Shown in pieces: positions 5,755 to 58,789 of a DNA stretch of 64,000 bases (position 1 is the first letter of the stretch; each line of letters begins with the position of its first letter). This stretch comes from a virus (lineage: Duplodnaviria; Caudoviricetes): the IMG/VR virus record IMGVR_UViG_2671180244_000004, positions 32,001 through 96,000 of that record; one strand, given 5' to 3'. The notes below the pieces were generated by a model. That model was given only the letters and a program-made list of their open reading frames with translations, ran no database searches and was not told the DNA's origin. The position numbers were made by a program, and so were the translations under genes.

Positions 5755-5772
5755 TTAAAATGACAGTTTTAT
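5755..5772. repeat. 18-bp boundary palindrome
   Basis: TTAAAA-TGACAG-TTTTAT. Confidence 0.75.
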
Positions 5773-5779
5773 CTGAAAC

Positions 5780-5806
5780 AAAAAAAGAACGGCTTTAAGC
5801 CGCTCT
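5780..5806 (-). terminator. rho-independent terminator
   Basis: CGGC-tttaa-GCCG stem followed by a T run on the minus strand. Confidence 0.6.
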
Positions 5807-5813
5807 CCTCTTA

Positions 5814-6053
5814 CTAATTTTGTTTAGACGTTTTTGAAATGAGATAATTAATCAATGTTATTACCAAATAAAACAATGTTCCATAAAATACACCATTAAA
5901 CAAGCTCACACCAATAAATTTGCTTATTAACACCACATAGTATGATGCTGGTGTTCCAGGGAACACGGCCATGTTAAAAAGACAAATCATGAGTGTTAAT
6001 AAAAAGCATATTGAAAACACAACACGAAACAATTTTGATTTTAACATTGTCAT
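5814..6053 (-). CDS. small two-TM membrane protein (possible immunity protein)
   Basis: 79 aa, two hydrophobic segments, directly after a secreted protein gene. Confidence 0.7.
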   Translation of the reverse strand: MTMLKSKLFRVVFSICFLLTLMICLFNMAVFPGTPASYYVVLISKFIGVSLFNGVFYGTLFYLVITLINYLISKTSKQN

Positions 6054-6065
6054 TTTTAATTTCTC

Positions 6066-6872
6066 CTATAATCGATTTCCGTAGAATGAAACTTTCCCTT
6101 TGTTGTTGCAGTGGATTTCATTTGAAATGTGCCACTCCTCAAGTATAAGGTCAAATCCTCCAAATGAAAAGCCTGTTGTAAAGTTTCCTTGAGCATAGGC
6201 TACGGCTTTGCCATTTGTTTTCTTTGTCCCTTTTTTCCAGTTTTCAACTTTCCATGTAGAAGTTTGGCCTCTTTTATAATATGCATCTGTTTGAGTTGCT
6301 CTTGGTTCTTTACCCCCATGGACAAAATATGCAGAATTATAAACCCTAAACAATTGTAATCCGAACATATTTTTAGCTCTGTATGTCAATTCGTACTCTT
6401 TAGTAGTAGCCTTTGTAGAAACATCTCCACTGTTTGATTTTTTCTCACCTGCATAAGTAATAAAATACGTTGGTGAGTCGGTTAAAACAAGTTCGATGCC
6501 ATTACCAATTTTGTGAGCTTCAAATTGTTTAGAGCTAACATTCTCTTCTATGTACTGTCCAATGTCAAAACTGTCCCCAGATTTAATGTTAGGCAATAGA
6601 TTTCTATTTTTCTTATAGTAGCTTGCCAGAAACTCTTCTTTTATTTTATTTTCAGAATAAAATTCTTCAGCAATTTTGTTTGCTTCTTCCTCATTTTTTG
6701 GTTTAGCATTCTTTAAGTATGATAAAAACTCTTCTTGATTCTTTTTGATTTCTTTAATAGCATCCTCATACTTTGTTTCACTTGTACTTGCTGCAGCAGA
6801 AGCAGAACCACTAATCATGATTGAAAACAACATAACAAAGCTAACAATTGTAAATATAGATTTTTTTAACAA
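6066..6872 (-). CDS. secreted protein
   Basis: Sec signal peptide ending ASA-A; beta-rich basic C-terminal domain. Confidence 0.8.
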   Translation of the reverse strand: MLKKSIFTIVSFVMLFSIMISGSASAAASTSETKYEDAIKEIKKNQEEFLSYLKNAKPKNEEEANKIAEEFYSENKIKEEFLASYYKKNRNLLPNIKSGDSFDIGQYIEENVSSKQFEAHKIGNGIELVLTDSPTYFITYAGEKKSNSGDVSTKATTKEYELTYRAKNMFGLQLFRVYNSAYFVHGGKEPRATQTDAYYKRGQTSTWKVENWKKGTKKTNGKAVAYAQGNFTTGFSFGGFDLILEEWHISNEIHCNNKGKVSFYGNRL

Positions 6873-6992
6873 ATAATCACTCCTTTTTTTTAATTCAATT
6901 GCAATGATAGCACTTACAATTGTTAAATCAAGGGTAAAATGGAAAAATCACAAAATCTGAGACCTTGTGACTAATCTGTTCCTTTATGTAGT

Positions 6993-7544
6993 TCATTTGC
7001 TATACAAACATGATACTTCGGCCTTTATAATGCTTGTTAAAACTTTTGTGGATTCATTAAACTTTCCTGAATTATTCCTTACTACATAGTCGTAGTGCTC
7101 CTTATTTTTCATCTCTTGGTGGTATGTACTCAATCTTTGTTCAACTGTATCTAATGTATCTCCTCTTTTAATCATTTGTTTATAAGCTTGGTCGTAAGGA
7201 GTGTACAAAAACAATGTTACACAACTAGGATACATCTTTTTAATTTGCTGCATTCCGTGGTAATCAACAATAACAAATGCATTTCCTAAACTCATTTTAT
7301 TTTCAAATTCTTCTTGGTCAATTCCATAATAATTGCCACTATATTTAACTTGTTCGATTAATTTGCTCTGTTTCTTTAAATCCTCGAATTTTTCAAGACT
7401 GATAAATTTATAGTCCACTCCATCAATTTCGCCTTTTCTTGGTTTCCTAGTAGTAAATGACACAACTTCATTATTCATGATTTGACGCATTAATGATGTC
7501 TTACCGCTTCCACTAGGGCCTGATACCACAATGAGTTTATTCAT
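6993..7544 (-). CDS. guanylate kinase-like protein
   Basis: SGPSGSGKT P-loop, TTRKPRKGEIDGVDYKF and YYG motifs; probable start MNKLIV. Confidence 0.9.
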   Translation of the reverse strand: MNKLIVVSGPSGSGKTSLMRQIMNNEVVSFTTRKPRKGEIDGVDYKFISLEKFEDLKKQSKLIEQVKYSGNYYGIDQEEFENKMSLGNAFVIVDYHGMQQIKKMYPSCVTLFLYTPYDQAYKQMIKRGDTLDTVEQRLSTYHQEMKNKEHYDYVVRNNSGKFNESTKVLTSIIKAEVSCLYSK

Positions 7545-7929
7545 TATTTGCTGTAATCTCACTCCAGTTCCACATGTCCAATGTTCTCATATCAAAACCA
7601 AACGGGTACTTCTTCATGTCAAGCCAAACTATTTCACGTACCCCTGAATTCTTATGGAGAACCCTTAATTTCTCGCCATTATAGAACCTTACAATAGCTT
7701 CATTAAATTCAATTGGTCGATCTACAACATATCCATGCTTAAAAGCTGCAATAAAGTCTTCAGGCTTCTCTTTATAGAAATTATAAATCACCTCAGCAAA
7801 CTCAGCGTTTTTGTCTTTCATTACATCAAATTGGACTAATCCCAAGTAAAGATGCTTATCTGAATATCCAAGATTTTTCTTAAAGAATTCTACTGCGTCA
7901 TGAATCTCTGGACTTAAAACAACTGTCAT
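7537..7929 (-). CDS. hypothetical protein (YorC-like by size and position)
   Basis: 130 aa, RBS GAGGTGA. Confidence 0.7.
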   Translation of the reverse strand: MTVVLSPEIHDAVEFFKKNLGYSDKHLYLGLVQFDVMKDKNAEFAEVIYNFYKEKPEDFIAAFKHGYVVDRPIEFNEAIVRFYNGEKLRVLHKNSGVREIVWLDMKKYPFGFDMRTLDMWNWSEITANNE

Positions 7930-7957
7930 ACAATCACCTCTATATCTTATTTTTATT

Positions 7958-7975
7958 TTAAAACGAATGTTTTAT
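7958..7975. repeat. 18-bp boundary palindrome
   Basis: TTAAAA-CGAATG-TTTTAT. Confidence 0.75.
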
Positions 7976-8106
7976 CGTATTTCAATGAGTATCAATTCCT
8001 TTTATTTTTTAGCCGCTTGATAAAAGTCTTGTATGGATAAATATGAAAGTTATATAGATTTATAAACCCGTATCATGCTATACTTTTGACTTCTAGGAGG
8101 GATTTT

Positions 8107-8547
8107 ATGAAAAAGAAGTTATTATTTATATTTCTTACCTTTTTATTTACTCTTGTTTCATGTTCATCTGAAAGTGTTAAAAGCGATTCTCCAGATTATA
8201 TTAAAGAATCGTTCGATTACTTTATATCAATCAAATCATTAGTTAAATCAGTAAATGACGGTGAAGAAGTTGATAAAGCAGTTAAGTCAAATTTTGAAAA
8301 GCAGTCTGAATTCAATGAGTGGATTGACACTAACTATGATCCTAATGATGAACCGAGTGAAGAAGCTGTACTTATAAGTCATTTCCATTTAATTAAGACA
8401 CTGTTAGAAAACTTAGTTATTTTTAGTGCATCAAAATCATTGGGGGTTGAGGATGTAGATATTTCATCTCCAATCAGCTCTCTTGAAAACTCCCTGTCTA
8501 ATCTGGAATCAATTTATGAAGAATATGGATATGAACCTAAAGATTGA
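8107..8547 (+). CDS. lipoprotein (moron, opposite strand)
   Basis: MKKKLLFIFLTFLFTLVS-C lipobox; RBS AGGAGGG. Confidence 0.8.
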   Translation: MKKKLLFIFLTFLFTLVSCSSESVKSDSPDYIKESFDYFISIKSLVKSVNDGEEVDKAVKSNFEKQSEFNEWIDTNYDPNDEPSEEAVLISHFHLIKTLLENLVIFSASKSLGVEDVDISSPISSLENSLSNLESIYEEYGYEPKD

Positions 8548-8573
8548 GAATAGCATTTAGCTATTTTTTTCTT

Positions 8574-8591
8574 TTAAAAGATTATTTTTAA
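8574..8591. repeat. 18-bp boundary palindrome
   Basis: TTAAAA-GATTAT-TTTTAA. Confidence 0.7.
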
Positions 8592-8605
8592 TTTTTGTAA
8601 ATAAA

Positions 8606-8645
8606 TTTTTTACTGGGCTAATATTGAACTAGCCCAGTAGAAATA
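8606..8645. terminator. terminator hairpin between convergent genes
   Basis: TACTGGGCTA...TAGCCCAGTA stem. Confidence 0.75.
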
Positions 8646-8647
8646 AA

Positions 8648-8938
8648 TCAGTCTTCCTCTAAGCCATATTCTTTAGCACCTTCTACTACCAGCTTGTAAA
8701 CAGCCATTAAATGTTCATTGATTTGTTTCTTAGTTTCTTCCCCAAATACATTAAAATCCACTTTAATTTCATTTGAAAAGTCGATTTTTTTTGATCCTAC
8801 CTGAGCAATATTTTTCTTTATTAGATCTGCTTTAAAATAACCGTCTGCCTCCTTACCAGTCAGTTCCCATGTCTCTGTGTTAACTCCTTCAATTATTCGA
8901 AAATAATAGTCCTTGATCCTTAATGTTTGTTCAGTCAT
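8648..8938 (-). CDS. yorB: YorB-like SOS-inducible protein
   Basis: 96 aa from MTEQ with RBS GGAGAGG; upstream LexA box, as known for SPbeta yorB. Confidence 0.6.
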   Translation of the reverse strand: MTEQTLRIKDYYFRIIEGVNTETWELTGKEADGYFKADLIKKNIAQVGSKKIDFSNEIKVDFNVFGEETKKQINEHLMAVYKLVVEGAKEYGLEED

Positions 8939-8999
8939 ACTATCCTCTCCTTTTTGTAAAGTTTTGGTACTCTTACAGCATACAACATTACCCAAAACA

Positions 9000-9011
9000 G
9001 AACAAGTGTTC
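9000..9011. promoter_or_regulatory. LexA (Cheo) box
   Basis: GAAC-AAGT-GTTC. Confidence 0.8.
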
Positions 9012-9060
9012 TTTTTTATTTTGAATAATGTGGTTTAATCATTTCAATTTCAATTCCCCC

Positions 9061-9210
9061 TCAATAAATTTGTTTTCTTTTTAATTTGATGTCTCTTTCC
9101 ATTCCACGATGTTCAATATTACTTAGAAGTTGTTTCAATTTCTCATTTTCGATTCTCAACATTCTGTTATCTGTTTGCAATTTGTTAATTAATGCTTCTT
9201 TATTCAACAT
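9061..9210 (-). CDS. small coiled-coil protein (49 aa)
   Basis: MLNKEALINKLQTDNRMLRIENEKLKQLL..., RBS GGAGGG; not in the ORF track. Confidence 0.6.
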   Translation of the reverse strand: MLNKEALINKLQTDNRMLRIENEKLKQLLSNIEHRGMERDIKLKRKQIY

Positions 9211-9219
9211 GTATCCCTC

Positions 9220-10011
9220 CTAATAAAGTTCAGGTGAATTAAACTTAACCTCTCTATAACCCAAACCTTTTAAATGCTCTTCCCAAACTTCAAATATTTT
9301 GTCTATTTCAGGTTTTATTTCCTGCTGTTTTTCCCATGTCTCAAGATTTCTATTAATTTCTTTCTGACTAGATTTAATTCCACCTTCATGATTTTTAATT
9401 AATTGTGTAAGCATATCTATGTATTCTTTCTTTTTAAATGGATGTACCAGCAAGGTGAAACATTGAATTGCTATGTACTTAAATGGATTCTTGATGAATC
9501 GATTGTTATCTTTTAAAAGTCCAAATAAGGGACTTTTTAAAACTTCTGTGTATCGTTTAATAGAATCTTCAGACTCTCGAATTCTATCTCTAATATCTTG
9601 ATCCATTCTCTTGTAGTGCTTTTCTGAAGTCCATTCAACAGTTCGTCCGTATATTTTTGATTCCCAATTCACTCTAAGAACACTACCTTTATCGGTGATA
9701 ATTGTGAAAGGATTTAAGTTTGCTGTAGAAATTTTGACACTACATCCATCATATATGTTTCCCACATAGTCATTAAGAAGCTGTAAAACTCGCTGTCTAA
9801 TATCTATTGAAAACTTACTCTTTGCTTCCTTGTCTAAAGCATTAAATAAATTCTTTTGGTCAATGGTTAGACTTGCTAAGTATGTATTTAGGTTGCTTAA
9901 AACATTGTCTTTATCTTTGAGAATGGTTGAATATGCATTACACAAGTAATCTAGATCAGCTTGTTTATTTAATGTGGCCTGTTTTAATTCGCTTAACATT
10001 AAATTCCTCAC
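9220..10011 (-). CDS. hypothetical protein
   Basis: 263 aa ORF in the array orientation; start uncertain. Confidence 0.7.
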   Translation of the reverse strand: MRNLMLSELKQATLNKQADLDYLCNAYSTILKDKDNVLSNLNTYLASLTIDQKNLFNALDKEAKSKFSIDIRQRVLQLLNDYVGNIYDGCSVKISTANLNPFTIITDKGSVLRVNWESKIYGRTVEWTSEKHYKRMDQDIRDRIRESEDSIKRYTEVLKSPLFGLLKDNNRFIKNPFKYIAIQCFTLLVHPFKKKEYIDMLTQLIKNHEGGIKSSQKEINRNLETWEKQQEIKPEIDKIFEVWEEHLKGLGYREVKFNSPELY

Positions 10012-10016
10012 TTTCG

Positions 10017-10034
10017 TTAAAAGGTTGTTTTTAT
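10017..10034. repeat. 18-bp boundary palindrome
   Basis: TTAAAA-GGTTGT-TTTTAT; contains the stop of ORF 10031-10219. Confidence 0.75.
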
Positions 10035-10219
10035 CTAAAAATATAAATAATCAAAAGCCATATTAATATTGAAATTATGCTCACATTAATCAATGTAATC
10101 AGTATTAATTGTTGTCTTTTCCACCTTTCCATTGTATTAGATGTTGACTCAAGACTTCTCTCCAATTTCAAGAGTGATTTTTCTATCGACTTCACAATTA
10201 ATCTCCTTAATGATCTCAA
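10031..10219 (-). CDS. small membrane-anchored protein
   Basis: C-terminal TM helix; true start may be internal (GTG after AAGGAG). Confidence 0.5.
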   Translation of the reverse strand: MRSLRRLIVKSIEKSLLKLERSLESTSNTMERWKRQQLILITLINVSIISILIWLLIIYIFR

Positions 10220-10256
10220 TTGCCTTATTAAAAATAAGTAATCGTTTATTGAATGG

Positions 10257-10979
10257 CTACTTCAAATCATTTGGACTGATAACTATAGATTCTTCCCAGT
10301 TTGGAAAGTAAGTAAGGGTACTTTTTTTGATTTTTTCAGCAAAAGTATTTAAAAACACTTGAAGTTCTTCCACATGCTCCATTGTGTTTTCATATGCGTT
10401 TTCATGTAGTTCTTCTGTTGCACTTTCAATGATGGATTGAGCATCAAATGACAGAGACATTTGGTTTGTTTTAAAAAGCCTCATGTTAGGTATATTTGAT
10501 ATTTCTATATCGCCTTGCTCAATTTCGTCTTGCAAAAACTCAATGACATCATCTATACTCTCGAAAAACTGTCCGTAATTGTCTAAGTACAACATATATG
10601 TACAGTCTTCTTTTAAATGTTCTTCTACACTTGTTTTTATAGCTTTGTTCCACTTCTCCAAAGCCTTTAAATGCTGCTTCTCGCTTTGCATGTTTTTATA
10701 TCCTGTACAATCACACCAGCCTTTTCTTCCTAATAATTCATTGCAGTGTGTGCATTTATGCTGTACACCGTTATAGCAATGTGAGCAACCTGTAATAGTT
10801 TGTTTTTTATGAGGAAGCATCTCGGTATATTTATCTTTATCACTTGTCAACCCGAATGGATTATCAGAAACTTGTAATCCAGCACCTCCGCATTTAGGGC
10901 AAATTTCTTCATTTTCTCCCAAATCTTTTTTTAGTATTAAGTCAAAATTAACTTCTATATTTTCAGTACGAATACTCAT
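10257..10979 (-). CDS. Cys-rich (DnaJ-type CxxCxGxG) hypothetical protein
   Basis: CPKCGGAG, CSHCYNG, CTHC motifs. Confidence 0.75.
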   Translation of the reverse strand: MSIRTENIEVNFDLILKKDLGENEEICPKCGGAGLQVSDNPFGLTSDKDKYTEMLPHKKQTITGCSHCYNGVQHKCTHCNELLGRKGWCDCTGYKNMQSEKQHLKALEKWNKAIKTSVEEHLKEDCTYMLYLDNYGQFFESIDDVIEFLQDEIEQGDIEISNIPNMRLFKTNQMSLSFDAQSIIESATEELHENAYENTMEHVEELQVFLNTFAEKIKKSTLTYFPNWEESIVISPNDLK

Positions 10980-11486
10980 TTAAATTCCTCCGTTTCTTTC
11001 GTCAATCATATTCTTGTGTCTACCACAGCTTGGCGCCATCCATACGGTCATTGCATAAGTGTGGGCTTCATTAGTGTAATGACAGTGGTTTACTGAAATG
11101 TGTTGTCTAGCTTCTTCTTCTGTGAAGAAGATTGTATCGCTATGTGTAATTCGGGCTTTTTTCTCGAGGAAGAACTTTGCTCCTTCATCTTCGTATTTCT
11201 GTATCCATTCTAAAATTTCATCGTAGTCATTATTGCATTCATCCAGTTCCTTTAATTGTTCACCACTAAATTCTCCGTCTTCTTTTGCACTTTCGATGTA
11301 ATCTTCAACAGGATAAGATTCTTCTGCATTAGGTAAGTACACAGAATATCGCTCAGCGTTTCCTTCATTTGCTTCAACCCACTTATAGTCACCTACAACC
11401 CAAAATCTTGGTGCAGCCTGACAATCAACATCCTGTGTTTTCAATTCTTGTTGCAATTCTTTTAGAAATTGAATAGCTTCTTTCAT
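10980..11486 (-). CDS. hypothetical phage protein
   Basis: 168 aa, translationally coupled to neighbours. Confidence 0.75.
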   Translation of the reverse strand: MKEAIQFLKELQQELKTQDVDCQAAPRFWVVGDYKWVEANEGNAERYSVYLPNAEESYPVEDYIESAKEDGEFSGEQLKELDECNNDYDEILEWIQKYEDEGAKFFLEKKARITHSDTIFFTEEEARQHISVNHCHYTNEAHTYAMTVWMAPSCGRHKNMIDERNGGI

Positions 11487-11653
11487 ACCGTTCCCTCAAG
11501 TAATTCGAAAGACACTGAGGTAACGTGTGGATCATCGTATAAAGTGGATTCTATAGCTGCTAACTCACTCTCATTTGCAACAGTTCTTACATATGAATTT
11601 TCTATTGTTTCTCCCATGTAGTTTTGTTTGTAATGAACTATAAATTTTTTCAT
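11483..11653 (-). CDS. hypothetical protein
   Basis: MKKFIVHYKQ..., coupled to the upstream stop, RBS GGAGG. Confidence 0.65.
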   Translation of the reverse strand: MKKFIVHYKQNYMGETIENSYVRTVANESELAAIESTLYDDPHVTSVSFELLEGTV

Positions 11654-12060
11654 TTCGCTTCCTCCCATTCTCTGAAACTATACGGATAATCAGTTTTGGA
11701 AATAAAACCGATTTCCTTTGCCTTTTGACGAATCTTTTCACAGCCTTCACGGCTATACGCCCATATTTCTTTGTAATCTCTGAGAGCGCCATATCGACCC
11801 GTGATGATAAACTCCCTCATACTGTTGACCAGCTGCCACATGTTATCGCCGTGTGAAAATCCCTCTACTCTTCGTCCTCGTTCATATGGATAAACATATT
11901 CTCCTGTATAATCGTCAATGAAGAATAGCTTGGTTTTAAATCTAAATGAGGCAACCCGATCTTTTGATTTGCAATAAAAAGTCCTTCTATCAGTACTTGC
12001 TATGAGCTTGATAAGCTCGTTAATATCATTCATTCGCTTTATTTGTTCCTTACTGGCCAT
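11650..12060 (-). CDS. hypothetical phage protein
   Basis: 136 aa, RBS AAGGAGG. Confidence 0.75.
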   Translation of the reverse strand: MASKEQIKRMNDINELIKLIASTDRRTFYCKSKDRVASFRFKTKLFFIDDYTGEYVYPYERGRRVEGFSHGDNMWQLVNSMREFIITGRYGALRDYKEIWAYSREGCEKIRQKAKEIGFISKTDYPYSFREWEEAK

Positions 12061-12082
12061 TCATTTCCTCCTTTTAAATTGA

Positions 12083-12100
12083 ATAAAAAATTACTTTTAT
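12083..12100. repeat. 18-bp boundary palindrome
   Basis: ATAAAA-AATTAC-TTTTAT; contains the stop of ORF 12097-12768. Confidence 0.8.
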
Positions 12101-12768
12101 TGAGTTTTATTTAAAAAATCACAATAGCTTTGACACTCATCAGCAGTTTTGAAAAACGTATTATAACTATTCAATTGAACGAACTCCATCTCTAAACTAT
12201 AAATATTTTCGGCTCGAATCGAATGATCATAAGTAAAATACTCATCACGATCACTCCCGTTCATTCTGTAAAACGCATTTACATATCGATGACCGCCTGA
12301 GTTCACAAGTGAAAAAGAATAGCGTATGTATTCTTCTGGGGTATAAACTCTTTTTTCAATAGAACAAGAGCAATTTTCAAATGCTTTATTGCCAAGTGGC
12401 GTAATATATTCTATCTGTCTATTTTCATTACACTGAGAACACTTATCTTGCGCTACTTTTGATGGGTAAGCTTTGTACATAATAACTTCAGAACCATTCA
12501 TAAGTTCTGAGAGTCTTTTGTTTTTCAACTCCATTTCCATCTTGTGGCGTTCCCTGTCTAACCTTCTTGATTTCTCTTTGTATTCTTTTTCAATAGTATC
12601 TAAATTCTCTTTTACTACTTGGAGTTCTTTGTTTTCCTTCTTCAGTTGCTCCATTTCACTCAAATATTCTTGTTTTACTGATTTCAACAAACTTTCCTTA
12701 AATTCATTGATTTGTTTTTCAAACTCATTTGGCTCATTAAAAAATTCTTCCTTATAAAAATAGTCCAT
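12097..12768 (-). CDS. hypothetical coiled-coil/Zn protein
   Basis: Probable start MDYFY with RBS GAGGAGG; CxxC...CxC. Confidence 0.75.
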   Translation of the reverse strand: MDYFYKEEFFNEPNEFEKQINEFKESLLKSVKQEYLSEMEQLKKENKELQVVKENLDTIEKEYKEKSRRLDRERHKMEMELKNKRLSELMNGSEVIMYKAYPSKVAQDKCSQCNENRQIEYITPLGNKAFENCSCSIEKRVYTPEEYIRYSFSLVNSGGHRYVNAFYRMNGSDRDEYFTYDHSIRAENIYSLEMEFVQLNSYNTFFKTADECQSYCDFLNKTQ

Positions 12769-12788
12769 TTCAATCCTCCTCAATTTAT

Positions 12789-12806
12789 ATGAAATCTCTG
12801 TTTTAC
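12789..12806. repeat. 18-bp boundary palindrome
   Basis: ATGAAA-TCTCTG-TTTTAC. Confidence 0.65.
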
Positions 12807-12821
12807 TCTAATTGACATATG

Positions 12822-13037
12822 TTATTTTTTAATTAATCCGCCGTTATCTTCTTCAATATGTACCATCCACTGTTCATATAGCTCATCGTACCAGGCATTG
12901 CTAACCGCAGTATAAACACCAATACCTTCTTCATGAAGCATTTTAAAGATTTGCCCACTCTTCAAATTTTCAAATGACTGTTCAATCCATGTTCCCTCAA
13001 CATACACATGCACCTGTTCAGTTCCGACTACAGACAT
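12822..13037 (-). CDS. hypothetical protein
   Basis: 71 aa, RBS AAGGAAGTG, divergent from ligB. Confidence 0.65.
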   Translation of the reverse strand: MSVVGTEQVHVYVEGTWIEQSFENLKSGQIFKMLHEEGIGVYTAVSNAWYDELYEQWMVHIEEDNGGLIKK

Positions 13038-13147
13038 CGCATCACTTCCTTTTTAATTTTTCGTATTATTCACACTCACTAATGCATGTACAATCCCAGT
13101 AAGTACCACTGCCCTTTCGCTTTATATAACGCCTTCTCTTAGTTAAT

Positions 13148-13984
13148 ATGATATATGTAGGAGGTGATATTTTGTTCGTATCGCCAATGTTATTGCATTC
13201 GATCAAAGAACCATTCGATGACGATAGTTATATTACAGAGCTTAAATTTGATGGAATAAGACTCATTCTTTCCAAATTTAATGATCAGATAAAGCTATTC
13301 ACCCGACATAACAACGAAGTAACAAGCAAATTCCCAGAGCTCTTGGATTTAGATATCCCAAATGGTACAGTTCTCGATGGTGAAGTTATTGTAGCTGCTC
13401 CAAATGGTGCTCCTGACTTTGAGGCTATAATGGAACGTTTTATGTCCAAAAAATCAGATCATAGTATTGTTTACTGTGTCTTTGATATTATTTTTAAAGA
13501 TGGATATTCTATTGCAGTTAAACCGCTCAGTGAGCGTAAGAACCTTCTTTATTCACTTGAACTGAATCACCCTAATGTCTTTGTAATCTCAGGAATTCAA
13601 GGTAACGGTCTATCTTACTTTAACTTGATCAAAGAAAAGGACTTAGAAGGAATCGTACTTAAAAGAGCTGACTCTCCTTATGAAATAAATAAACGGTCTC
13701 ATAATTGGCTTAAAGTTATTAATTATGAATACACCGAAGTTCTCATTACGGGCTATACAAAAGAAGATATAAAATTCCTTCTTTCCTATCCAGATGGATC
13801 ACCAGCTGGATTTATGGAATTTATACCACGAGAAGAACGAAGTAGATTCCACTCTATGAAACAAGTAAAGTCTGAATCTGATGAATATGTATTTATTGAT
13901 CCTATTGTATGTAAGGTTAAGCACAGATTTAAGACTAAGCATGGCAAACTCCGCATACCTTCCTTCGATTCTTGGAGAGTATAA
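13148..13984 (+). CDS. ligB: ATP-dependent DNA ligase
   Basis: ELKFDGIR, LDGEV, EGIVLK, WLKV motifs; true start probably TTG at ~13172. Confidence 0.93.
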   Translation: MIYVGGDILFVSPMLLHSIKEPFDDDSYITELKFDGIRLILSKFNDQIKLFTRHNNEVTSKFPELLDLDIPNGTVLDGEVIVAAPNGAPDFEAIMERFMSKKSDHSIVYCVFDIIFKDGYSIAVKPLSERKNLLYSLELNHPNVFVISGIQGNGLSYFNLIKEKDLEGIVLKRADSPYEINKRSHNWLKVINYEYTEVLITGYTKEDIKFLLSYPDGSPAGFMEFIPREERSRFHSMKQVKSESDEYVFIDPIVCKVKHRFKTKHGKLRIPSFDSWRV

Positions 13985-14004
13985 CCTCTCCGTTACATAA
14001 CTCC

Positions 14005-14022
14005 TTAAAAACTATCTTTTAT
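14005..14022. repeat. 18-bp boundary palindrome
   Basis: TTAAAA-ACTATC-TTTTAT. Confidence 0.75.
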
Positions 14023-14181
14023 TTGAAATATTGCACAACTCCATAACTTTCAAAGTTAAATGGCTGTGGTGGCGGAGTTGATCCTAATAAGGCGTATGAT
14101 TTTCGTCGCATTTGTTTAAATGCCATAATTCCGATACACTCTCCTCTATTTTGTTACATTAGTTAATTTGGTTACACCAAA

Positions 14182-14892
14182 TCAATCATACTCAGTATTG
14201 GCAATCTCTAACTCCACGTTATCTTCATCAACAATCAATTTTGAACCCCGTGCATACATTTTAAACAGAATTTCTTCTAACCCACGGAATCCCCTCATGA
14301 TAGCCCGTGCATCAAATTCATTTACGTCTCTTGAATGACGTCTGTTCTCTTTGATTTGAATGTTGCTAATTTTACCCGTTTCCTTATCCACCCAAAATGT
14401 ATATTTACAATCATACTTTTCTTTGTCGTTTTCGCTATCAAGATAAATGATCTTTGATAAACTAAAAGTATCATCAATGATCATTGTCATTTCATGGTAA
14501 TCATCATATTCCAAGTCATCTGTCTCAACCTCTTTAGCCATTTCCTTTACAAGTTCAGATAGGCTGTATTCAGATTTTGCTGAATCTAATAATGAATCAA
14601 TTGTTTCGTTAATTCTCTTCACACCTTCACTTGCAATTGAATCATCCAACTTTTCTTTTACAGCTTTCATAATGAATGTATTATAAGAAGCTAAGTCTAG
14701 TTCTTTAAGATTCACTTGTAACTCCTCTTCTACTTGTTTCTTCAGGTTTTTAGAAAACTCACTCCAGTTACCAAAAAGATCTCCAACAATTGAACCAATT
14801 GTCTTAGCAATATGATTATCAACAATTTCTTGCACCTTTCCTTCTGTCTCCATCTTTGTCAAGCTCTTCATAACCATTTTATTTAAGTCCAT
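14182..14892 (-). CDS. hypothetical phage protein
   Basis: Probable start MDLNKMV with RBS AAGGGG. Confidence 0.75.
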   Translation of the reverse strand: MDLNKMVMKSLTKMETEGKVQEIVDNHIAKTIGSIVGDLFGNWSEFSKNLKKQVEEELQVNLKELDLASYNTFIMKAVKEKLDDSIASEGVKRINETIDSLLDSAKSEYSLSELVKEMAKEVETDDLEYDDYHEMTMIIDDTFSLSKIIYLDSENDKEKYDCKYTFWVDKETGKISNIQIKENRRHSRDVNEFDARAIMRGFRGLEEILFKMYARGSKLIVDEDNVELEIANTEYD

Positions 14893-14930
14893 TGCTATTC
14901 CCCTTTTCTTATATTTAAAATGTATTCTCC

Positions 14931-14948
14931 TTAAAATCACGATTTCAT
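14931..14948. repeat. 18-bp boundary palindrome
   Basis: TTAAAA-TCACGA-TTTCAT; abuts the stop of the 14949-15104 ORF. Confidence 0.7.
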
Positions 14949-15104
14949 CTAAACTGTTAAACCTGCTTGTCGATTATTCATCATGATTTTAATCAATTTG
15001 TTGTTTCTCATTTCTTCTTTCTCTTTCAGAATTGCTTCTTCATTAGCTGCCAGCTTCATTTTCAATTTAACGTTTTCTTTAATCAATTTCTTCATATTGT
15101 TCAT
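14949..15104 (-). CDS. small protein (51 aa)
   Basis: MNNMKKLIKENVKLKMKL..., RBS GGGAGG. Confidence 0.55.
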   Translation of the reverse strand: MNNMKKLIKENVKLKMKLAANEEAILKEKEEMRNNKLIKIMMNNRQAGLTV

Positions 15105-15130
15105 ATGTATTACCTCCCTCAAGATGTGTG

Positions 15131-15334
15131 TTATTTATATTCAAACAATGTACCTTCATCTGTCTTTGGAACTTTAGTACATTGATTTGAATTTGTTTTA
15201 TTTCTAACATAAATATATTCCTTATCCTCATCAAGAACTTCATATTCTTTATCCTTTATGAAATATAAAGTATATGGATACTCTGCAAGAGCAATGTCTT
15301 TTTTAAAAATTACCTTGTCCACTTCTTTCACCAT
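15131..15334 (-). CDS. hypothetical protein
   Basis: 67 aa ORF; start uncertain. Confidence 0.55.
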   Translation of the reverse strand: MVKEVDKVIFKKDIALAEYPYTLYFIKDKEYEVLDEDKEYIYVRNKTNSNQCTKVPKTDEGTLFEYK

Positions 15335-15486
15335 CCTTCTTATATTGTTTATAGGCTACATACGACTTCCAACTGCAGTTCTCAAATATGTTTATGTCTG
15401 CTTTATGGTGCACCTTATACCAGATAAGATTAAACTTCGCTGTTTGATATACAAAATATATGTAATTTATCATATTTTCACCTTAA

Positions 15487-15681
15487 TTACTCATCCCACT
15501 CAGAATCATCAAACGGTTCTAGATCAACCTTACTTTCCCATCCTTCAACAAAAATTGTTTCATTGTCTCTATGCTTCAATAGGAAATCCGCTAATCCTTC
15601 TGGAGTTCTAATCATTGTTTCTTCATCGATCATATCTAAAACAATCTCTCTTACCATTAAATTTGTTACAACTGTTTTCAT
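15487..15681 (-). CDS. hypothetical acidic protein
   Basis: 64 aa, RBS GGGAGGGG. Confidence 0.7.
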   Translation of the reverse strand: MKTVVTNLMVREIVLDMIDEETMIRTPEGLADFLLKHRDNETIFVEGWESKVDLEPFDDSEWDE

Positions 15682-15700
15682 ACTTCCCCTCCCAATTCTT

Positions 15701-15718
15701 ATGAAATAATCCTTTTAT
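15701..15718. repeat. 18-bp boundary palindrome
   Basis: ATGAAA-TAATCC-TTTTAT. Confidence 0.75.
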
Positions 15719-15719
15719 T

Positions 15720-15857
15720 TTAATCAATCGCAGATACTTCAACTTCAGTAAAATCTTCAATTTCAACGTATAACTCATCGTCTTCAAAATGAACAGTCTT
15801 TACTGGTGTAACAATTTTTCCGTTTTCTATCCAAATATCTTCTCCATTCTTATTCAT
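15720..15857 (-). CDS. small acidic protein (45 aa)
   Basis: MNKNGEDIWIENGKIVTPVK..., RBS GGAGGTGA. Confidence 0.55.
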   Translation of the reverse strand: MNKNGEDIWIENGKIVTPVKTVHFEDDELYVEIEDFTEVEVSAID

Positions 15858-15872
15858 TGTAAAACTCACCTC

Positions 15873-16548: not shown

Positions 16549-16580
16549 TTCATCAACACCTTTCAATTGGTTCTGGAATA

Positions 16581-16853
16581 TTACCTTAGCAATCTCTGCA
16601 ATGAATCAATTTCACTTTTCAAACTTTTAATTTCTGTTTCAAGCTTCTTCTTTGTTTCATGATGTTCTTCCTCTTCAAGTTCAATCAACTTCTCATAAGA
16701 ATGATACGGCTGGTTGCCAATCCAAATTGAATATTCGTCAGTTTCTGGAATGTAGTTAACTGTAAAACATTGTGGATGATAATCTACGTCTTTAAGGAAC
16801 CCAACAACATCATCCCATTTCTTCAATCGATCATACATACTCATACAAGTCAC
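16581..16853 (-). CDS. hypothetical protein
   Basis: 90 aa ORF with C-terminal coiled coil. Confidence 0.7.
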   Translation of the reverse strand: MTCMSMYDRLKKWDDVVGFLKDVDYHPQCFTVNYIPETDEYSIWIGNQPYHSYEKLIELEEEEHHETKKKLETEIKSLKSEIDSLQRLLR

Positions 16854-16863
16854 ACCCTTTCCC

Positions 16864-16881
16864 TTAAAACAGTCTTTTTAT
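16864..16881. repeat. 18-bp boundary palindrome
   Basis: TTAAAA-CAGTCT-TTTTAT. Confidence 0.75.
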
Positions 16882-17990: not shown

Positions 17991-18019
17991 TGTTAATCAA
18001 TCTCCTATCCTAATTTAGA

Positions 18020-49134: not shown

Positions 49135-49175
49135 GTAATTACATACAAAAATTTCTCAATAAAAGGAGCATTTTA

Positions 49176-50189
49176 ATGTTTGATAATGTAAAAGTTAGAG
49201 GCCTATTCAGCCGTGTTCTAAACAACCAAATGGAGCAAAAGGATGAATCGGATATCAAAGAATGTATTAAAAAAGTATTTGGTGATGGCACAGTAAATCC
49301 TGACCCTTCAATGTTACATCAATTCAACAATTTGGTTGTTGAACAAGCAGATGCCATTGCAAAGCCTAAAGTTACAGAGTTGTTTAAGCTTTTTGCTGAT
49401 ACTGACCAAGAAAAACCAGGAACGCTCAAACAACTTAAAATTCCGAAGAAAAACAAAGCTAAATTTGTATGGTCTGCATCTGGTTCAGGCGTAGATTTAG
49501 TTCGTGTTGAAGGTCGTGAGTCCATTACTGCAGTGCCACAAACACTTTCTACAGGATTCTACTACGAACCTCTAGATCTCGTTGCGGACACTGTTGTTGC
49601 TTTTGATAAGCTTGTTAATGACATTGCTGACGCAAAGGTTCGTCTATATTTAGATAAAATTCACGAATTAACCGCTTCGGCAGTTAGCTCTGGAAAAATC
49701 CCTGCAAAGAACGTACAAACTGGATCCAACCTAACTATTCAAAAATATAGTGAGTTAGCTTCTGTTCTTCAACGTTATGGAGGTCGCCCGGTATTTATTG
49801 CAGATTCATTGCTTATTGACTATTTTGCTAATCAACAAGGGACTGATCCGAAATACGTCAATCTCCTTTCTGACAAAATCAAAGAGGAGCTTCTTACAGC
49901 ACTAAACCCATCTACAATCGGAAGAACTACAGCTGTTAACTTGATTAACCCATTCACTGATGAAACAAATACAAAAGTTGAGTTGCCGGTAAATAAAGGG
50001 TACATGTTTGCTGGCGGAGTCTCACAAAAACCATTTTCTGTTGTGGAATATGGTGGTTTAAAACAAATGACTGAACAAGATATTGAAGACGAGCGAGTAA
50101 AAATGAAAATCACTCAATCTGCTTCTCTCGTTCTACTTTTCGGCGAAGCTATCGGCATCATCGAAGAACAGGCAGCAGTATCCATTTAA
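49176..50189 (+). CDS. yonB: major capsid protein
   Basis: 337 aa; synteny. Confidence 0.75.
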   Translation: MFDNVKVRGLFSRVLNNQMEQKDESDIKECIKKVFGDGTVNPDPSMLHQFNNLVVEQADAIAKPKVTELFKLFADTDQEKPGTLKQLKIPKKNKAKFVWSASGSGVDLVRVEGRESITAVPQTLSTGFYYEPLDLVADTVVAFDKLVNDIADAKVRLYLDKIHELTASAVSSGKIPAKNVQTGSNLTIQKYSELASVLQRYGGRPVFIADSLLIDYFANQQGTDPKYVNLLSDKIKEELLTALNPSTIGRTTAVNLINPFTDETNTKVELPVNKGYMFAGGVSQKPFSVVEYGGLKQMTEQDIEDERVKMKITQSASLVLLFGEAIGIIEEQAAVSI

Positions 50190-51108: not shown

Positions 51109-51341
51109 GATTATATGTAAACGATCAATTGTATTCTAGCTGCGTACCAATTAACGAACACCTTACTAGACTAAGTAAGAAAAATAATTCAGTGCTATAC
51201 AAACTGGAAGAATTTCTAGATAAAAAATTGATTGCCGATCCCTCTTTGTCTGAAATTAGAGACATTATTTTATCAGTAAGTGGTGATATCGTACGTTTGG
51301 AAAATTCTATTGTTTGTGGTGATCATGATGAGGAACTTTAA
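51105..51341 (+). CDS. yomY: hypothetical protein
   Basis: 78 aa, coupled; synteny. Confidence 0.55.
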   Translation: MRLYVNDQLYSSCVPINEHLTRLSKKNNSVLYKLEEFLDKKLIADPSLSEIRDIILSVSGDIVRLENSIVCGDHDEEL

Positions 51342-51972
51342 AAATTATCATAAATTTAATCCTAATCAGAAGATTTCTTTTGATGGACAGAGTATTTTCG
51401 AACGTGGACTAGAAGGATTTCAAGGTGAAGATGTTTTTATTGACGGTATTTCCGTGAAATGTCTGATTCAATCTAAATCAAATGATGGATTGTTTAGATA
51501 CATATTAGCTAAACCTGATGAGATTAAATTGGGTAGTGTTGTTGAATGGGATATCGGCAAATGGTTGATTGTAACACAACCCAGTGACAATAAGATTTAC
51601 AAAAAAGCAGAAATGCGACTGTGCAACAGTTCAATCAAATTATCTTCAGGTGACATATATGTAGATACAGGTAAAATCAATGAAATCACTGGAAAACCAA
51701 TAAAAAAACTTGTTCCTGGTGAAAGCATTGAAATCCCTTCCGTGTTTGAGAGAACTGTTTCAGTTAATGGCTCTGATCAACCTATCAATCTTCCTGATGG
51801 CCAAGCTCACATCACTCTCCCCTACTCAACTAATCCTCAATTAAAAATTGGGTTAAAAACGCAATTTTATTCAGAAGAGTATATTGTCCACGATATTGAT
51901 TATTCAAAAGTGATTAATGGCGTAGGTACTATTAAGCTCATTGCAAAAAAGAAAGTCAGTGATGCCAAATGA
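51325..51972 (+). CDS. yomX: head closure-like protein
   Basis: ~215 aa from MMRNF; synteny. Confidence 0.6.
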   Translation: MMRNFKNYHKFNPNQKISFDGQSIFERGLEGFQGEDVFIDGISVKCLIQSKSNDGLFRYILAKPDEIKLGSVVEWDIGKWLIVTQPSDNKIYKKAEMRLCNSSIKLSSGDIYVDTGKINEITGKPIKKLVPGESIEIPSVFERTVSVNGSDQPINLPDGQAHITLPYSTNPQLKIGLKTQFYSEEYIVHDIDYSKVINGVGTIKLIAKKKVSDAK

Positions 51973-56142: not shown

Positions 56143-56418
56143 ATGAAAACAATATTTTATTATGATGAAAACTTTGTTTACTCAAGACAGTATGACTATT
56201 TTGAAGGAGAAATTTTGCCAGAAATGAGCACAGATATCGCCCCTCCCCAATCACTTTATTTAGGAAAATTTGATCCTAAGAAAAAACAGTGGAATGAATC
56301 TGCTTCTCAGGAGTATAAAGATTCATTGCAAGTCGAGCTTAAACCTCCTGAAATTAACTTGGTTAAACAGCAAGTATCCGATCTTTATTATTTGATTGCG
56401 ATGGGAGGAGGAATTTAA
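56143..56418 (+). CDS. tail fibre assembly-like protein (YomQ-like)
   Basis: FYYDENFVY, TDIAPP, FDPKKKQWNE. Confidence 0.65.
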   Translation: MKTIFYYDENFVYSRQYDYFEGEILPEMSTDIAPPQSLYLGKFDPKKKQWNESASQEYKDSLQVELKPPEINLVKQQVSDLYYLIAMGGGI

Positions 56419-56574
56419 ATGAATACTGAGTTTGACTGGTATAAAGTAATTAAAGGTTTTTACGATGATGGACTTTGGACTAAAGAGAGAGTGTACAACA
56501 CTGTGGGCGCAGGAAGAATCACGCCTGAACAGTATGAAGAAATCACAGGAGAAAAATATACTCCACCACAATAA
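56419..56574 (+). CDS. yomP: XkdX family protein
   Basis: MNTEFDWYKVIKGFYDDGLWT..V..GRITPEQYEEITGEKY. Confidence 0.8.
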   Translation: MNTEFDWYKVIKGFYDDGLWTKERVYNTVGAGRITPEQYEEITGEKYTPPQ

Positions 56575-56588
56575 AATAAGAATTTTAT
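56571..56588. repeat. 18-bp boundary palindrome
   Basis: ATAAAA-TAAGAA-TTTTAT; contains the yomP stop. Confidence 0.75.
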
Positions 56589-56849
56589 TGAAATAGAAGG
56601 TTTAACTTGAACGTTCTTGCTAACTTTGTTGATGTGTCAGAGGACATTTTACTTTTGAAGGGTTTCTGCAAAGAATCTCTTAAAGGAAAATTAAAATGGC
56701 TTTTCTTTTTATACCCTTTGTGTCTATTAGCAGTGACACTGTTAAAGCTCACTTCCCTTGTTTATTCAATAAAACACAATAAATATTCTAAAAAACGCTA
56801 ACACCTCTCCCCTATTTGAGGTGTTTTTATTTTAATCATAAGGAGAGAT

Positions 56850-57332
56850 ATGATGACAACACAAAAATTAACACTTGATCACATTAAAGATGGGAATAAA
56901 AAATACGATGAGAAAGTCAAGGTTCAGTTAGATGAAAAGTTTCATGTACATATCTACCCTAACTTTGATCCAGTTAAGATTACTCAAATGATCAAAATGG
57001 CTTTGGAAGATGCAGCTGAAATTGAGTCGAATAAAAAGATTAAACACAAACTTAATTTCGTTGATCTTTTAAACATTTATACAATCCTCACCTTCAGTGA
57101 TATCGCTAATATCCCACAAGGAATCACATCGAAAGTTAACTTAATGAGTGAATTGGTTAAGTCCCCATACTATCAAATAATCAACGATTCTTTTCCTAAA
57201 GAGAGTTTCGAAAGCATTGATGAGAAATTGCGTTCAATGACAGAAGGTATGATCAAAACTCAAGAGGCACTTACTGATAAAGCGAACGAAGAAATCTTGA
57301 AAAAAGTTGAAAAACTAAATGCTGAAGCATAA
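56850..57332 (+). CDS. yomO: tail assembly chaperone-like protein
   Basis: 160 aa; synteny. Confidence 0.6.
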   Translation: MMTTQKLTLDHIKDGNKKYDEKVKVQLDEKFHVHIYPNFDPVKITQMIKMALEDAAEIESNKKIKHKLNFVDLLNIYTILTFSDIANIPQGITSKVNLMSELVKSPYYQIINDSFPKESFESIDEKLRSMTEGMIKTQEALTDKANEEILKKVEKLNAEA

Positions 57333-57754
57333 TGGCCAAAAATCATAAGGGATTAGCCGCTATGCTTGAAAAAGCAGCTTTAAAAGCCTTGCAGACTGGC
57401 AGTCATACAAAAGAGCTCTTAGTCAAAACAGGTCAAGAGCAAGTCCAAACAGTTGTATATGATTCATATAGTCCAGTGGAATATAACCGAACTGGTGAGT
57501 TAAAGGCTTATTTTGTTGTAGCTAATGAATCAAATGGAATCTCACTAGACAACGTAAGAGCAGACGATGGACGAGATGTTGCAACAGTTGTTGAGACTGG
57601 TGAAGGATACCAATTCCCTGACGAATATGGTTATGGCTATGGTGAGCCTCGTCCTTTTATGGGCAACACTGCTGAAAAGCTCAAACACAGTGGTGAATTA
57701 GTGGAAGCTGCTATGAAAGATGTTCGCAAGGCTGGTTACAAGACAATCAAATAG
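57332..57754 (+). CDS. yomN: HK97-gp10-like tail protein
   Basis: YNRTGEL and PRPFM motifs. Confidence 0.65.
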   Translation: MAKNHKGLAAMLEKAALKALQTGSHTKELLVKTGQEQVQTVVYDSYSPVEYNRTGELKAYFVVANESNGISLDNVRADDGRDVATVVETGEGYQFPDEYGYGYGEPRPFMGNTAEKLKHSGELVEAAMKDVRKAGYKTIK

Positions 57755-57773
57755 CCTGGCGGTGAATTTAAAA

Positions 57774-58775
57774 ATGAGTAAAGAAATTGAACAAAATATG
57801 CTCCGCAAAAGAGCACAGAAGCTCCCTGAAGTTACAGATGATATGTGGTCACAGGTCGATCAAGAACATCGAGACCTGGTTTCAGAGTTTCTAGATGCCA
57901 ACTCATTCAGGGATAAAACTAAAAAACAGTATCATTCTACACTACGTCAGTTTTTCTGGTGGGTACATACATCATTAAACGGCAAGAAGCTATACAAGAT
58001 CACTAAAAGAGATTTTATACGATACCAGAGCTTCTTGAAAAATCGTGGAATGTCTTCAAGTGGCATTGCACTAAAAAAAGCTTCTGTGTCTTCTCTTAAC
58101 AACTATCTTGAAAACATAGTGGCTGAAGACGATCCGAACTATAAGACTTTTCGAAACTTCACTCGCGGCCTCCCTGCTATACCTAAAACGGTGACTTATG
58201 AAAAAGTTAAAGTAACATACGATGATTACAAATTAATGATGGACACTCTAGAAGAAGATGAAAACTATCTTGGGATGGCATGGCTAGCCACTGCATTTAA
58301 TGTTGGTGGTCGTAGAGCAGAGTTAGTCCAGTTTAAAACAGAAATACTAGACTATCCTTTAAGTCAAGGTCAATCATATGTTATGAGTCATAAAGTGTTC
58401 GGAAAAGGCAGAGGCGAAGGGAAAGTTTTAGAATACATGGTGAATTTAGAGGCACTTAAGTACATGAGAATATGGCATGAGAAACGTGGATATGATCATG
58501 AGTACATCTTCACCACTCAATATGGCGGCGAGCCTAAGCAAATCTCAGAGTCGTGGGCAGATTATTTTTGTTCAGATGTACTTTCGGACATTCTCGGCAG
58601 ACGAATCAACCCTCACCTATTTAAAGCCTCTTGTATTACCTACCTTCTCGAAGTGAAAAAGATCAAGTTGGAATTGGTTAGTAAATACATTGCTCACCAT
58701 AAAGATGTATCAACTACAATCAAACATTACGATTTAAGAAACTTCGAAGAAGAAAAGAATCAAATCTTCGTTTGA
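57774..58775 (+). CDS. yomM: tyrosine recombinase YomM
   Basis: 333 aa from MSKEIEQ; GGRRAE, GKG, HLFK, HH..VSTT..HY. Confidence 0.88.
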   Translation: MSKEIEQNMLRKRAQKLPEVTDDMWSQVDQEHRDLVSEFLDANSFRDKTKKQYHSTLRQFFWWVHTSLNGKKLYKITKRDFIRYQSFLKNRGMSSSGIALKKASVSSLNNYLENIVAEDDPNYKTFRNFTRGLPAIPKTVTYEKVKVTYDDYKLMMDTLEEDENYLGMAWLATAFNVGGRRAELVQFKTEILDYPLSQGQSYVMSHKVFGKGRGEGKVLEYMVNLEALKYMRIWHEKRGYDHEYIFTTQYGGEPKQISESWADYFCSDVLSDILGRRINPHLFKASCITYLLEVKKIKLELVSKYIAHHKDVSTTIKHYDLRNFEEEKNQIFV

Positions 58776-58789
58776 AATCCCTCTTTTAT
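58772..58789. repeat. 18-bp boundary palindrome at the yomM stop
   Basis: TTGAAA-TCCCTC-TTTTAT; TGA stop in the left arm. Confidence 0.72.

Follow-up and report, generated by a model that had tools for sequence, protein, structure and literature searches.

Palindromic sites with individual centres as probable fixed crossover points for gene exchange in an SPbeta-like phage

Why should the accessory genes of a large phage be separated, one after another, by copies of the same short palindrome, each with a different centre? The question is raised by a 64,000-nucleotide (nt) stretch of DNA (hereafter the window, numbered from its first base), which is bases 32001–96000 of a 133,201-bp phage genome (virus record IMGVR_UViG_2671180244_000004) and in which an 18-bp interrupted palindrome with a six-base centre recurs between genes. 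Comparison of related genomes points to the palindrome copies as being, probably, fixed crossover points for gene swapping. The phage is SPbeta-like, with genes for an MrpR/SroF-type repressor, AimR, a YonO-type RNA polymerase, HU and YopQ-like, YopP-like, TubZ-like and YomM-like proteins, and shows little DNA similarity to known SPbeta-like members. SPbeta itself is a model temperate phage, whose accessory regions hold toxin, defence and counter-defence genes. We compared the genome with those of five close relatives, SPbeta, phi3T, SPbetaL3 (hereafter L3), Goe11 and SPR, using gene calls from our own simple caller.

The motif and its position between genes

The pattern WTRAAANNNNNNTTTYAW (WTRAAA-N6-TTTYAW) has 25 exact matches in the window versus 1.74 expected (standard deviation 1.38, largest value 7), a count reached by none of 100 dinucleotide-preserving shuffles of the window. 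The motif is thus real and few chance matches are expected, as the first-pass annotation of this DNA had held. That annotation listed 24 copies, of which 21 are exact and three (12789, 29772 and 30286) proved to be one-mismatch variants lying 20–38 nt upstream of called starts; the sequences at ~17729 and 27127, described there as degenerate copies, do not resemble the motif, and four exact copies (28939, 49159, 51853 and 56143) are additional to its list. The complete 133,201-bp genome has 38 exact copies versus 2.8 expected. One-mismatch variants, 57 genome-wide versus 52.8 expected, are not in excess, and the motif is therefore sharply bounded.

The same motif abounds in relatives near and distant. 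SPbeta, phi3T, L3, Goe11 and SPR have 34–38 copies each (1–3 for a reversed control pattern), and counts elsewhere (control in brackets) are 36 (2) in Geobacillus virus E3, 36 (5) in Mammaliicoccus phi127, 17 (5) in Staphylococcus SPbeta-like 2, 31 (2) in the lytic Bacillus phage PJN02 and 5 (2) in Lactococcus 949. In an unbiased scan for interrupted palindromes, covering all 5-mer arms and spacers of 3–9, TAAAA-N6-TTTTA ranked first in this phage, SPbeta, E3, phi127 and PJN02, and was not top-ranked in Lactococcus 949. Two copies overlap by two bases in the E3 record (91911–91944) and could represent an empty slot or a tandem site.

Of the window copies, 23 of 25 lie between genes or extend into a stop or start codon. 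The earlier statement that every copy lies at a gene boundary is correct but for 51853 and 28939, which fall inside called open reading frames (ORFs), and its statement that the capsid operon has none is not quite right, with 49159, 51853 and 56143 lying in the late plus-strand block. That the upstream stop is often inside an arm was borne out at eight sites by our gene calls, the left arm supplying or overlapping the stop at 10017, 12083, 19227, 27923, 29149, 42190, 56571 and 58772. Read along local transcription, the site is ATAAAA-N6-TTTTAW, directly followed by a purine-rich ribosome-binding site (RBS). Genome-wide, 23 of the 38 copies end 10–40 nt ahead of a start codon; the upstream stop is at a more variable distance, ranging from overlap (the TAA or TGA of the arm being the stop) to about 290 nt. 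The copies in the window are listed below; all are exact unless a mismatch is stated, and all five phages means the five SPbeta-like relatives.

5755–5772, minus strand: junction site, sense ATAAAACTGTCATTTTAA; intergenic, right after a terminator-like hairpin and upstream of a sigma-A-like promoter (5730–5702), the sole such promoter adjoining a site
7958–7975, minus strand: junction site, 28 nt upstream of the start of gene 7537–7929(-)
8574–8591, no strand assigned: junction site of convergent genes, between the stops of 8107–8547(+) and 8648–8938(-)
10017–10034, minus strand: junction site; 4-nt overlap with upstream stop, next start 17 nt on
12083–12100, minus strand: junction site, centre GTAATT; 20-nt island identical to SPbeta 95562 with unrelated flanks; present in Goe11 too
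12789–12806, minus strand: one-mismatch variant, ATGAAATCTCTGTTTTAC on the plus strand; 20 nt upstream of called start
14005–14022, minus strand: junction site, centre GATAGT; 19-nt island identical to SPbeta 92393; found also in phi3T, L3, Goe11, SPR and PJN02
14931–14948, minus strand: junction site touching the upstream stop; centre shared with lytic PJN02, flanks unrelated
15701–15718, minus strand: junction site; upstream stop 1 nt before, next start 19 nt after
16864–16881, minus strand: junction site, centre AGACTG; identical in all five phages, flanking genes unrelated
18020–18037, minus strand: junction site, centre GATGCA, common to all five phages; SPbeta homology (yoqC side) ends here
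19227–19244, minus strand: junction site, centre TGTAAG, in all five phages; overlaps the stop of 19234–19404(-)
26872–26889, minus strand: junction site downstream of aimR; intergenic, with a one-base centre variant at syntenic SPbeta 73668
27923–27940, minus strand: junction site, centre TCATTC, also in L3 and SPR; overlaps upstream stop
28716–28733, minus strand: junction site; intergenic
28939–28956, minus strand: match of uncertain standing, 13 nt inside a doubtful 52-aa ORF; could be chance
29149–29166, minus strand: junction site; overlaps the stop of 29149–29454(-)
29485–29502, minus strand: junction site, next start 30 nt on; same 18-mer in PJN02, flanks unrelated
29772–29789, minus strand: one-mismatch variant, 22 nt upstream of called start
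30286–30303, minus strand: one-mismatch variant, 38 nt upstream of called start
30634–30651, minus strand: junction site, centre TTCTAA, in all five phages and PJN02; its SPbeta partner (131161) is the one shared site out of collinear order
30966–30983, minus strand: junction site upstream of an HTH_17 gene, 17 nt before the start of 30694–30948(-)
42190–42207, plus strand: junction site in the late block; overlaps upstream stop, next start 25 nt on
49159–49176, plus strand: site with the RBS in its centre (GGAGCA), ending at the start codon of 49176–50189(+); the syntenic SPbeta copy (50181) differs in one centre base
51853–51870, plus strand: match inside gene 51325–51972(+), probably chance
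56143–56160, plus strand: match at a start codon; its ATGAAA starts 56143–56418(+), 12 nt past the previous stop
56571–56588, plus strand: junction site, centre TAAGAA, also in L3; overlaps upstream stop
58772–58789, plus strand: junction site where the YomM-like gene ends, centre TCCCTC, which SPbeta (39885) and four further phages also have; SPbeta similarity is almost complete on one side of the site and missing on the other side

A yoqU homologue (window 11650–12060, 76% identity) follows the centre GTAATT in this phage and TATTTA in SPbeta.

Conserved hinges between unlike DNA

We examined the centres, breakpoints between relatives and the DNA held between sites. Across the six genomes there are 89 distinct centres, none duplicated within a genome, and 13 of the 38 in this phage recur, with order kept, in at least one other SPbeta-like phage. 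Against SPbeta there are 11 identical-centre pairs in syntenic orientation (10 of them collinear) and none in control orientation, even though the 40-nt flanks on either side of these shared sites are mostly unalignable and the genes and proteins flanking shared sites are mostly unrelated in sequence and length. Isolated exact matches of at least 16 nt between this phage and each relative number 6–9 at sites and 41–45 elsewhere, the latter being about what base composition predicts by our arithmetic. B. subtilis phages, lytic PJN02 included, share 4–6 centres (control 0–1), and sharing with phages of Geobacillus or staphylococci is at chance level only; this confinement to B. subtilis phages fits a recombining pool, not a fixed functional sequence. 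The arms, common to all sites, imply one reader. The centres are unique to each joint yet conserved there between phages with unrelated flanks, which points to like pairing with like; the first-pass annotation had invoked a Tn916-type tolerance of differing 6-bp cores, and the conservation goes the other way.

The five close relatives share 30–39 blocks per pair at 93–96% identity, and the ends of these blocks gather at the sites. Within 10 nt of a site lie 95 of the 681 distinct ends, versus about 1% of random positions, in counts that pool five related genomes and are not independent. By junction, a breakpoint is found at 113 of 159 with a site versus 231 of 810 without. Restricting the comparison to short co-directional junctions in variable neighbourhoods gives 49/71 with a site versus 89/436 without (odds ratio 8.7), and the excess in variable neighbourhoods is significant in each of the five genomes singly (p 0.014 or less). 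Upstream blocks end at site positions 15–19 in 26 of 75 cases and downstream blocks begin at −5 to +2 in 50 of 91; hence both neighbours include the whole 18-mer, and similarity stops at its far edge. The breakpoints of gene gain, loss and replacement among relatives thus map, at nucleotide resolution, to sites that bound accessory-gene units, and the cassette-boundary part of the first-pass reading holds on this sequence comparison.

Slots between the same two addresses may have different contents. Two genomes share adjacent addresses in 182 pairs; for the 164 evaluated (18 longer than 8 kb were skipped), the intervening DNA matches in 55, matches in part in 67 and differs throughout in 42. 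One slot (SPbeta 118469–118866) has unrelated inserts of 280–379 nt in this phage, SPbeta, L3, Goe11 and SPR. A four-gamete test on the six genomes gave no full quartet, and three of the four gametes at 11 of 34 addresses; six genomes are too few for such a test, and we therefore turned to viral contigs, clustering alleles at 75% identity over 120 nt. The exact 18-mer of site 16864 is present in 51 contigs, 50 of them with full flanks, in which 21 upstream and 15 downstream alleles occur in 39 combinations with 17 four-gamete quartets, and sequence entropy rises to 1–2 bits at the first base upstream of the 18-mer. An A/T-only 18-mer address gave 18 × 24 alleles in 36 filtered loci; it has many chance matches in metagenome and giant-virus contigs, and the 36 are those of 61 loci that have a further motif copy, a crude filter. 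For the address of site 14005 there were 9 upstream and 8 downstream alleles in 15 filtered viral contigs. These comparisons of genomes and contigs show the sites to be conserved hinges between unlike DNA, around which the flanks reassort freely.

Could the palindromes instead be operators of a global dimeric regulator, such as the ParB/DndB-like YopQ acting like KorB of plasmid RK2, with no role in recombination and with breakpoints nearby only as a by-product of lying before accessory genes? Palindromic arms, a fixed spacer, a sharp sequence and a position 17–30 nt before many start codons would all suit an operator, and SPbeta, E3, phi127 and Staphylococcus SPbeta-like 2 have YopQ-like genes together with the motif. 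PJN02, however, is site-rich and has no YopQ match, the breakpoint excess persists in variable neighbourhoods relative to other short co-directional junctions, and block ends fall at the site edges rather than being spread over the gap. The conserved centres and the 39 flank combinations around one 18-mer would be left unexplained, and the ten MrpR peaks in the chromatin affinity data (ChAP-seq) lie at another sequence, SPBRE. We therefore consider a purely regulatory function improbable. Binding by a regulator, which the first-pass annotation had offered as an alternative, may be a second role of the sites and does not explain their conserved cores.

A site for a symmetric protein and its candidate readers

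The orientation of the motif with transcription and its place just 5′ of the RBS could also mean a function at the RNA level, in processing, in 5′ stabilisation or as a translational operator. We judge this very unlikely, and the same applies to the RNA-processing signal of the first-pass annotation. Of ten sites folded as RNA, five have a minimum free energy of 0 and most others fold no more stably than shuffled sequence. Variation in one arm is independent of that in the other, without covariation (both G..T and A..C are seen, G..C never), sites also lie between convergent genes (8574, 14005), and the conserved centres would have no explanation. In window 5500–20500 there are 58 promoter-like sites versus 68.3 expected and 8 terminator-like ones versus 4.6, with no enrichment around the sites. 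Given independent arms, weak RNA folds and no promoter or terminator enrichment, the motif behaves as a DNA site of a two-fold symmetric protein; a stable RNA hairpin, a sigma-A promoter and a terminator were ruled out as its identity by the folding and the promoter and terminator scans. In the GenBank annotation of SPbeta, a stem_loop feature overlaps just one of the 27 motif copies lying at 60–134 kb.

Another repeated intergenic element of SPbeta-like phages, SPBRE, is likewise read by a protein of tyrosine-recombinase fold. It is the operator of the master repressor MrpR/YopR/SroF, with about ten promoter copies, and is long, non-palindromic and phage-specific, being given as a 15-bp MEME motif and as 24/26 bp read by a monomer (PMC10516654; bioRxiv 10.1101/2025.11.27.690993). 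The palindrome, unlike the phage-specific SPBRE, is the same in SPbeta and phi3T, and SPBRE was ruled out as its identity by the different sequence and the 34–38 palindrome copies per genome. The ten MrpR-bound promoter regions share a AAATACAAAAAATATGTATA-like box 35–120 nt before the start codon, which is presumably SPBRE; a palindrome lies within 220 nt in three of the ten.

A promoter or terminator signal for YonO was rejected too, as E3, phi127, Staphylococcus SPbeta-like 2 and PJN02 carry the motif and have no tblastn match to YonO. According to the published account, YonO transcription has a single start site, which lies upstream of yonK (PMC5467207). This phage has its YonO-type single-chain RNA polymerase gene at window 35990–38500 (Pfam RdRP match, E 4.3e-11), and a tubulin/FtsZ-family (TubZ-like) gene at 33927–35039 adjoins this region.

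On balance, we lean towards the view that the 18-mers are fixed, individually addressed joints at which crossing-over takes place between like centres, likely by a site-specific recombinase. All joints would have the same short arms (TRAAA / TTTYA, usually ATAAAA...TTTTAW along transcription) and each its own six-base centre, and the exchangeable unit would run from a site through the RBS and gene or genes to the next site, the left arm often giving the TAA or TGA stop of the preceding gene. In a cell that holds two such phages, or a phage together with a prophage, crossing-over inside matching sites would replace the gene block between two sites slot by slot and leave gene order undisturbed. 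The agent would most likely be a dimeric site-specific recombinase that binds the arms and requires identical centres for strand exchange, and the process would amount to a natural recombinase-mediated cassette exchange between heterospecific lox/FRT-like sites. TRAAA-N6-TTTYA has the layout of a tyrosine-recombinase core site, with inverted arms around a 6–8 bp centre, and pairing of like centres is the rule of tyrosine-recombinase strand exchange. A tyrosine recombinase needing matching centres is accordingly our best guess for the acting protein. Two genes of recombinase fold in the window, apart from that of the repressor, are candidates.

57720–58775, plus strand: YomM-like gene, tyrosine-recombinase fold, candidate reader; Pfam Phage_int_SAM_4 below cut-off, weak match to Cre (E 0.004), 84–88% identical to SPbeta YomM
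23044–24126, minus strand: YopP-like tyrosine recombinase gene in the sro operon, candidate reader; Pfam Phage_int_SAM_1 and Phage_integrase (weak), 46% identical to SPbeta YopP, no match in the PDB

YopP has an XerC-superfamily domain and its role is unknown (PMC8612738). Catalytic residues were read by eye from alignments of the six phages. It is possible, and we put it forward tentatively, that one of these phage-encoded tyrosine recombinases (YomM-like or YopP-like), of an unusual HxxK type, acts on the roughly 35 heterospecific sites of a genome, each of which would have its own 6-bp overlap. As agents they are the only candidates that we can name, and this assignment is the weakest step of the model. 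Every motif-rich genome has MrpR-like, YopP-like and YomM-like genes; Lactococcus 949 lacks only the MrpR-like gene, a single negative genome to which we give no weight. In Staphylococcus SPbeta-like 2, phi127, Lactococcus 949 and PJN02 the YomM-like gene immediately precedes the tape-measure gene. YomM homologues are found in 184 phage records, many of lytic large siphoviruses, as a conserved member of the structural module.

Several observations weigh against recombinase-driven exchange at the sites or against these particular readers. In both candidates R, K, H, H and Y are present with HxxK replacing HxxR (R..K..HxxK..H..Y in the YomM-like protein), the place of YomM homologues beside the tape-measure gene suggests another job, and Lactococcus 949 has YomM-like and YopP-like genes and is motif-poor. 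The strongly conserved arms are 5–6 bp, which is short for a tyrosine recombinase; an outer extension, T-t-T-n-n-A, is weak and would perhaps bring the arm to 11 bp. As for the addresses, no counterpart in the five relatives was found for 25 of this phage's 38 centres. One-base-different centre pairs with SPbeta number 14 in syntenic versus 12 in control orientation, about 7 of the 14 being syntenic as judged by eye; centres thus do drift. Gene blocks, moreover, sometimes change slot, as with the yoqU homologue. Finally, in three laboratory phi3Ts × SPbeta hybrids (Hyb1–3) the crossovers that can be placed (Hyb3 54013; Hyb1 1254–1280 and 23599–23671) are not at sites, and ordinary homologous recombination therefore clearly operates.

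The large crossovers in these hybrids fall inside parent-identical tracts of 1,365–18,196 nt, so that they cannot be placed. Each of these tracts (1,365, about 4,850 and 18,196 nt) is bounded at both ends by palindrome sites. The hybrid parents are themselves mosaics cut at sites.

The main rival to site-specific exchange holds that the sites are kept for some other reason, for example as targets of a DNA-binding protein, and that their 18-bp islands of identity host short-homology recombination (Sak4-type, RecA). Sak4-type proteins carry out single-strand annealing, and a suitable gene is present in this phage:

2815–3945, minus strand: AAA_24 (Sak4-type) gene, Pfam AAA_24, E 2.9e-19; candidate for the short-homology route

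AAA_24 genes occur also in phi127, PJN02 and Lactococcus 949. The hybrids, moreover, arise by ordinary homologous recombination, and all the breakpoint data fit such a route as well as they fit the site-specific model. Regulatory repeats can drive modular shuffling, as the PeSLs of T4-type phages show (PMC2839356), but the sites here, unlike PeSLs, are not promoters, terminators or stable hairpins. A protein that reads the arms alone would leave the centre free, yet centres are held at orthologous joints amid unalignable flanks, and 18 bp is, on general knowledge, very short for homology-dependent exchange. We thus regard short-homology recombination as a serious but somewhat doubtful explanation of the data. 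A further idea, that an interrupted-palindrome nuclease leaves unique overhangs which a phage ligase (13172–13984) rejoins, does not hold generally, since that ligase is absent from E3, phi127, Staphylococcus SPbeta-like 2 and PJN02.

Nearest known systems and consequences for phage evolution

In heterospecific lox/FRT exchange by Cre or Flp, sites have identical inverted arms and differing spacers, exchange occurs between like spacers, and two flanking crossovers swap a cassette. This is an engineered process with 34-bp sites, 13-bp arms and 8-bp spacers. The exchange logic that we propose would be alike, but the arms here are 5–6 bp, the spacer 6 bp and the reader only putative.

The first-pass annotation called the system integron-like, and a true integron would have circular cassettes, a primary insertion site and an IntI-type integrase acting on folded attC. 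What the two have in common is mostly promoterless gene units bounded by imperfect palindromes and a suspected tyrosine recombinase, for which genes are present here. Integron attC sites are roughly 55–140 bp and fold single-stranded with extrahelical bases; cassettes enter at one attI beside intI, and their order is a history of capture. The sites here do not match in structure, size or mobility pattern, being simple 18-bp palindromes without a stable fold or any attC-type structure, with unique centres and an order fixed in the six phages. There is no sign of circular cassettes entering one attI, window gene calls and Pfam scans revealed no attI-like primary site or integrase-adjacent cassette array, and the recombinase homologues score weakly against Phage_integrase. 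An integron thus seems to us scarcely credible, the least probable of the explanations considered.

Two natural systems come closer. The PeSL cassettes of T4-type phages are likewise short repeats that lie between genes in the variable parts of a large phage genome and mark points of insertion, deletion and replacement between relatives, and modular shuffling was proposed for them; each is a strong sigma-70-like promoter with a terminator stem-loop, and the copies are alike, so that any two can recombine (Arbiol et al. 2010, PMC2839356). The sites here, by contrast, have no promoter and terminator stem-loop per element (only 5755 adjoins a promoter), and each has its own conserved centre. The pdif sites and dif modules of Acinetobacter plasmids likewise comprise many core sites with two arms and a 6-bp centre that flank accessory modules across replicons; according to the abstract, pdif sites are similar to the dif site of the host chromosome, with host XerC/XerD as their presumed recombinases, and the modules move between plasmids, while a fixed order of individually addressed centres is not described in that abstract (PMC6449649). 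PeSL, pdif and lox/FRT are the nearest known systems, and in none of them do arms common to all sites, centres that are unique and conserved, and a fixed order occur together. In the literature searched we found no description of the palindrome; a mention in the 1999 SPbeta genome paper, in supplements or in subscription journals remains possible.

The sites give a base-exact map of exchange points, and the rule 'same centre, same slot' predicts which phages trade which genes. If the tentative reading of a phage-encoded HxxK-type recombinase is true, all large siphoviruses of one Bacillus host, temperate and lytic, could trade accessory genes, and genes for defence and counter-defence, slot by slot with their common gene order preserved, and the sites would embody the 'linker' sequences that the modular theory of phage evolution has postulated. 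Should a dedicated enzyme read about 35 mutually exclusive sites, this would be a new mode of phage genome plasticity, and one that would supply ready-made orthogonal recombination sites for Bacillus genome engineering.

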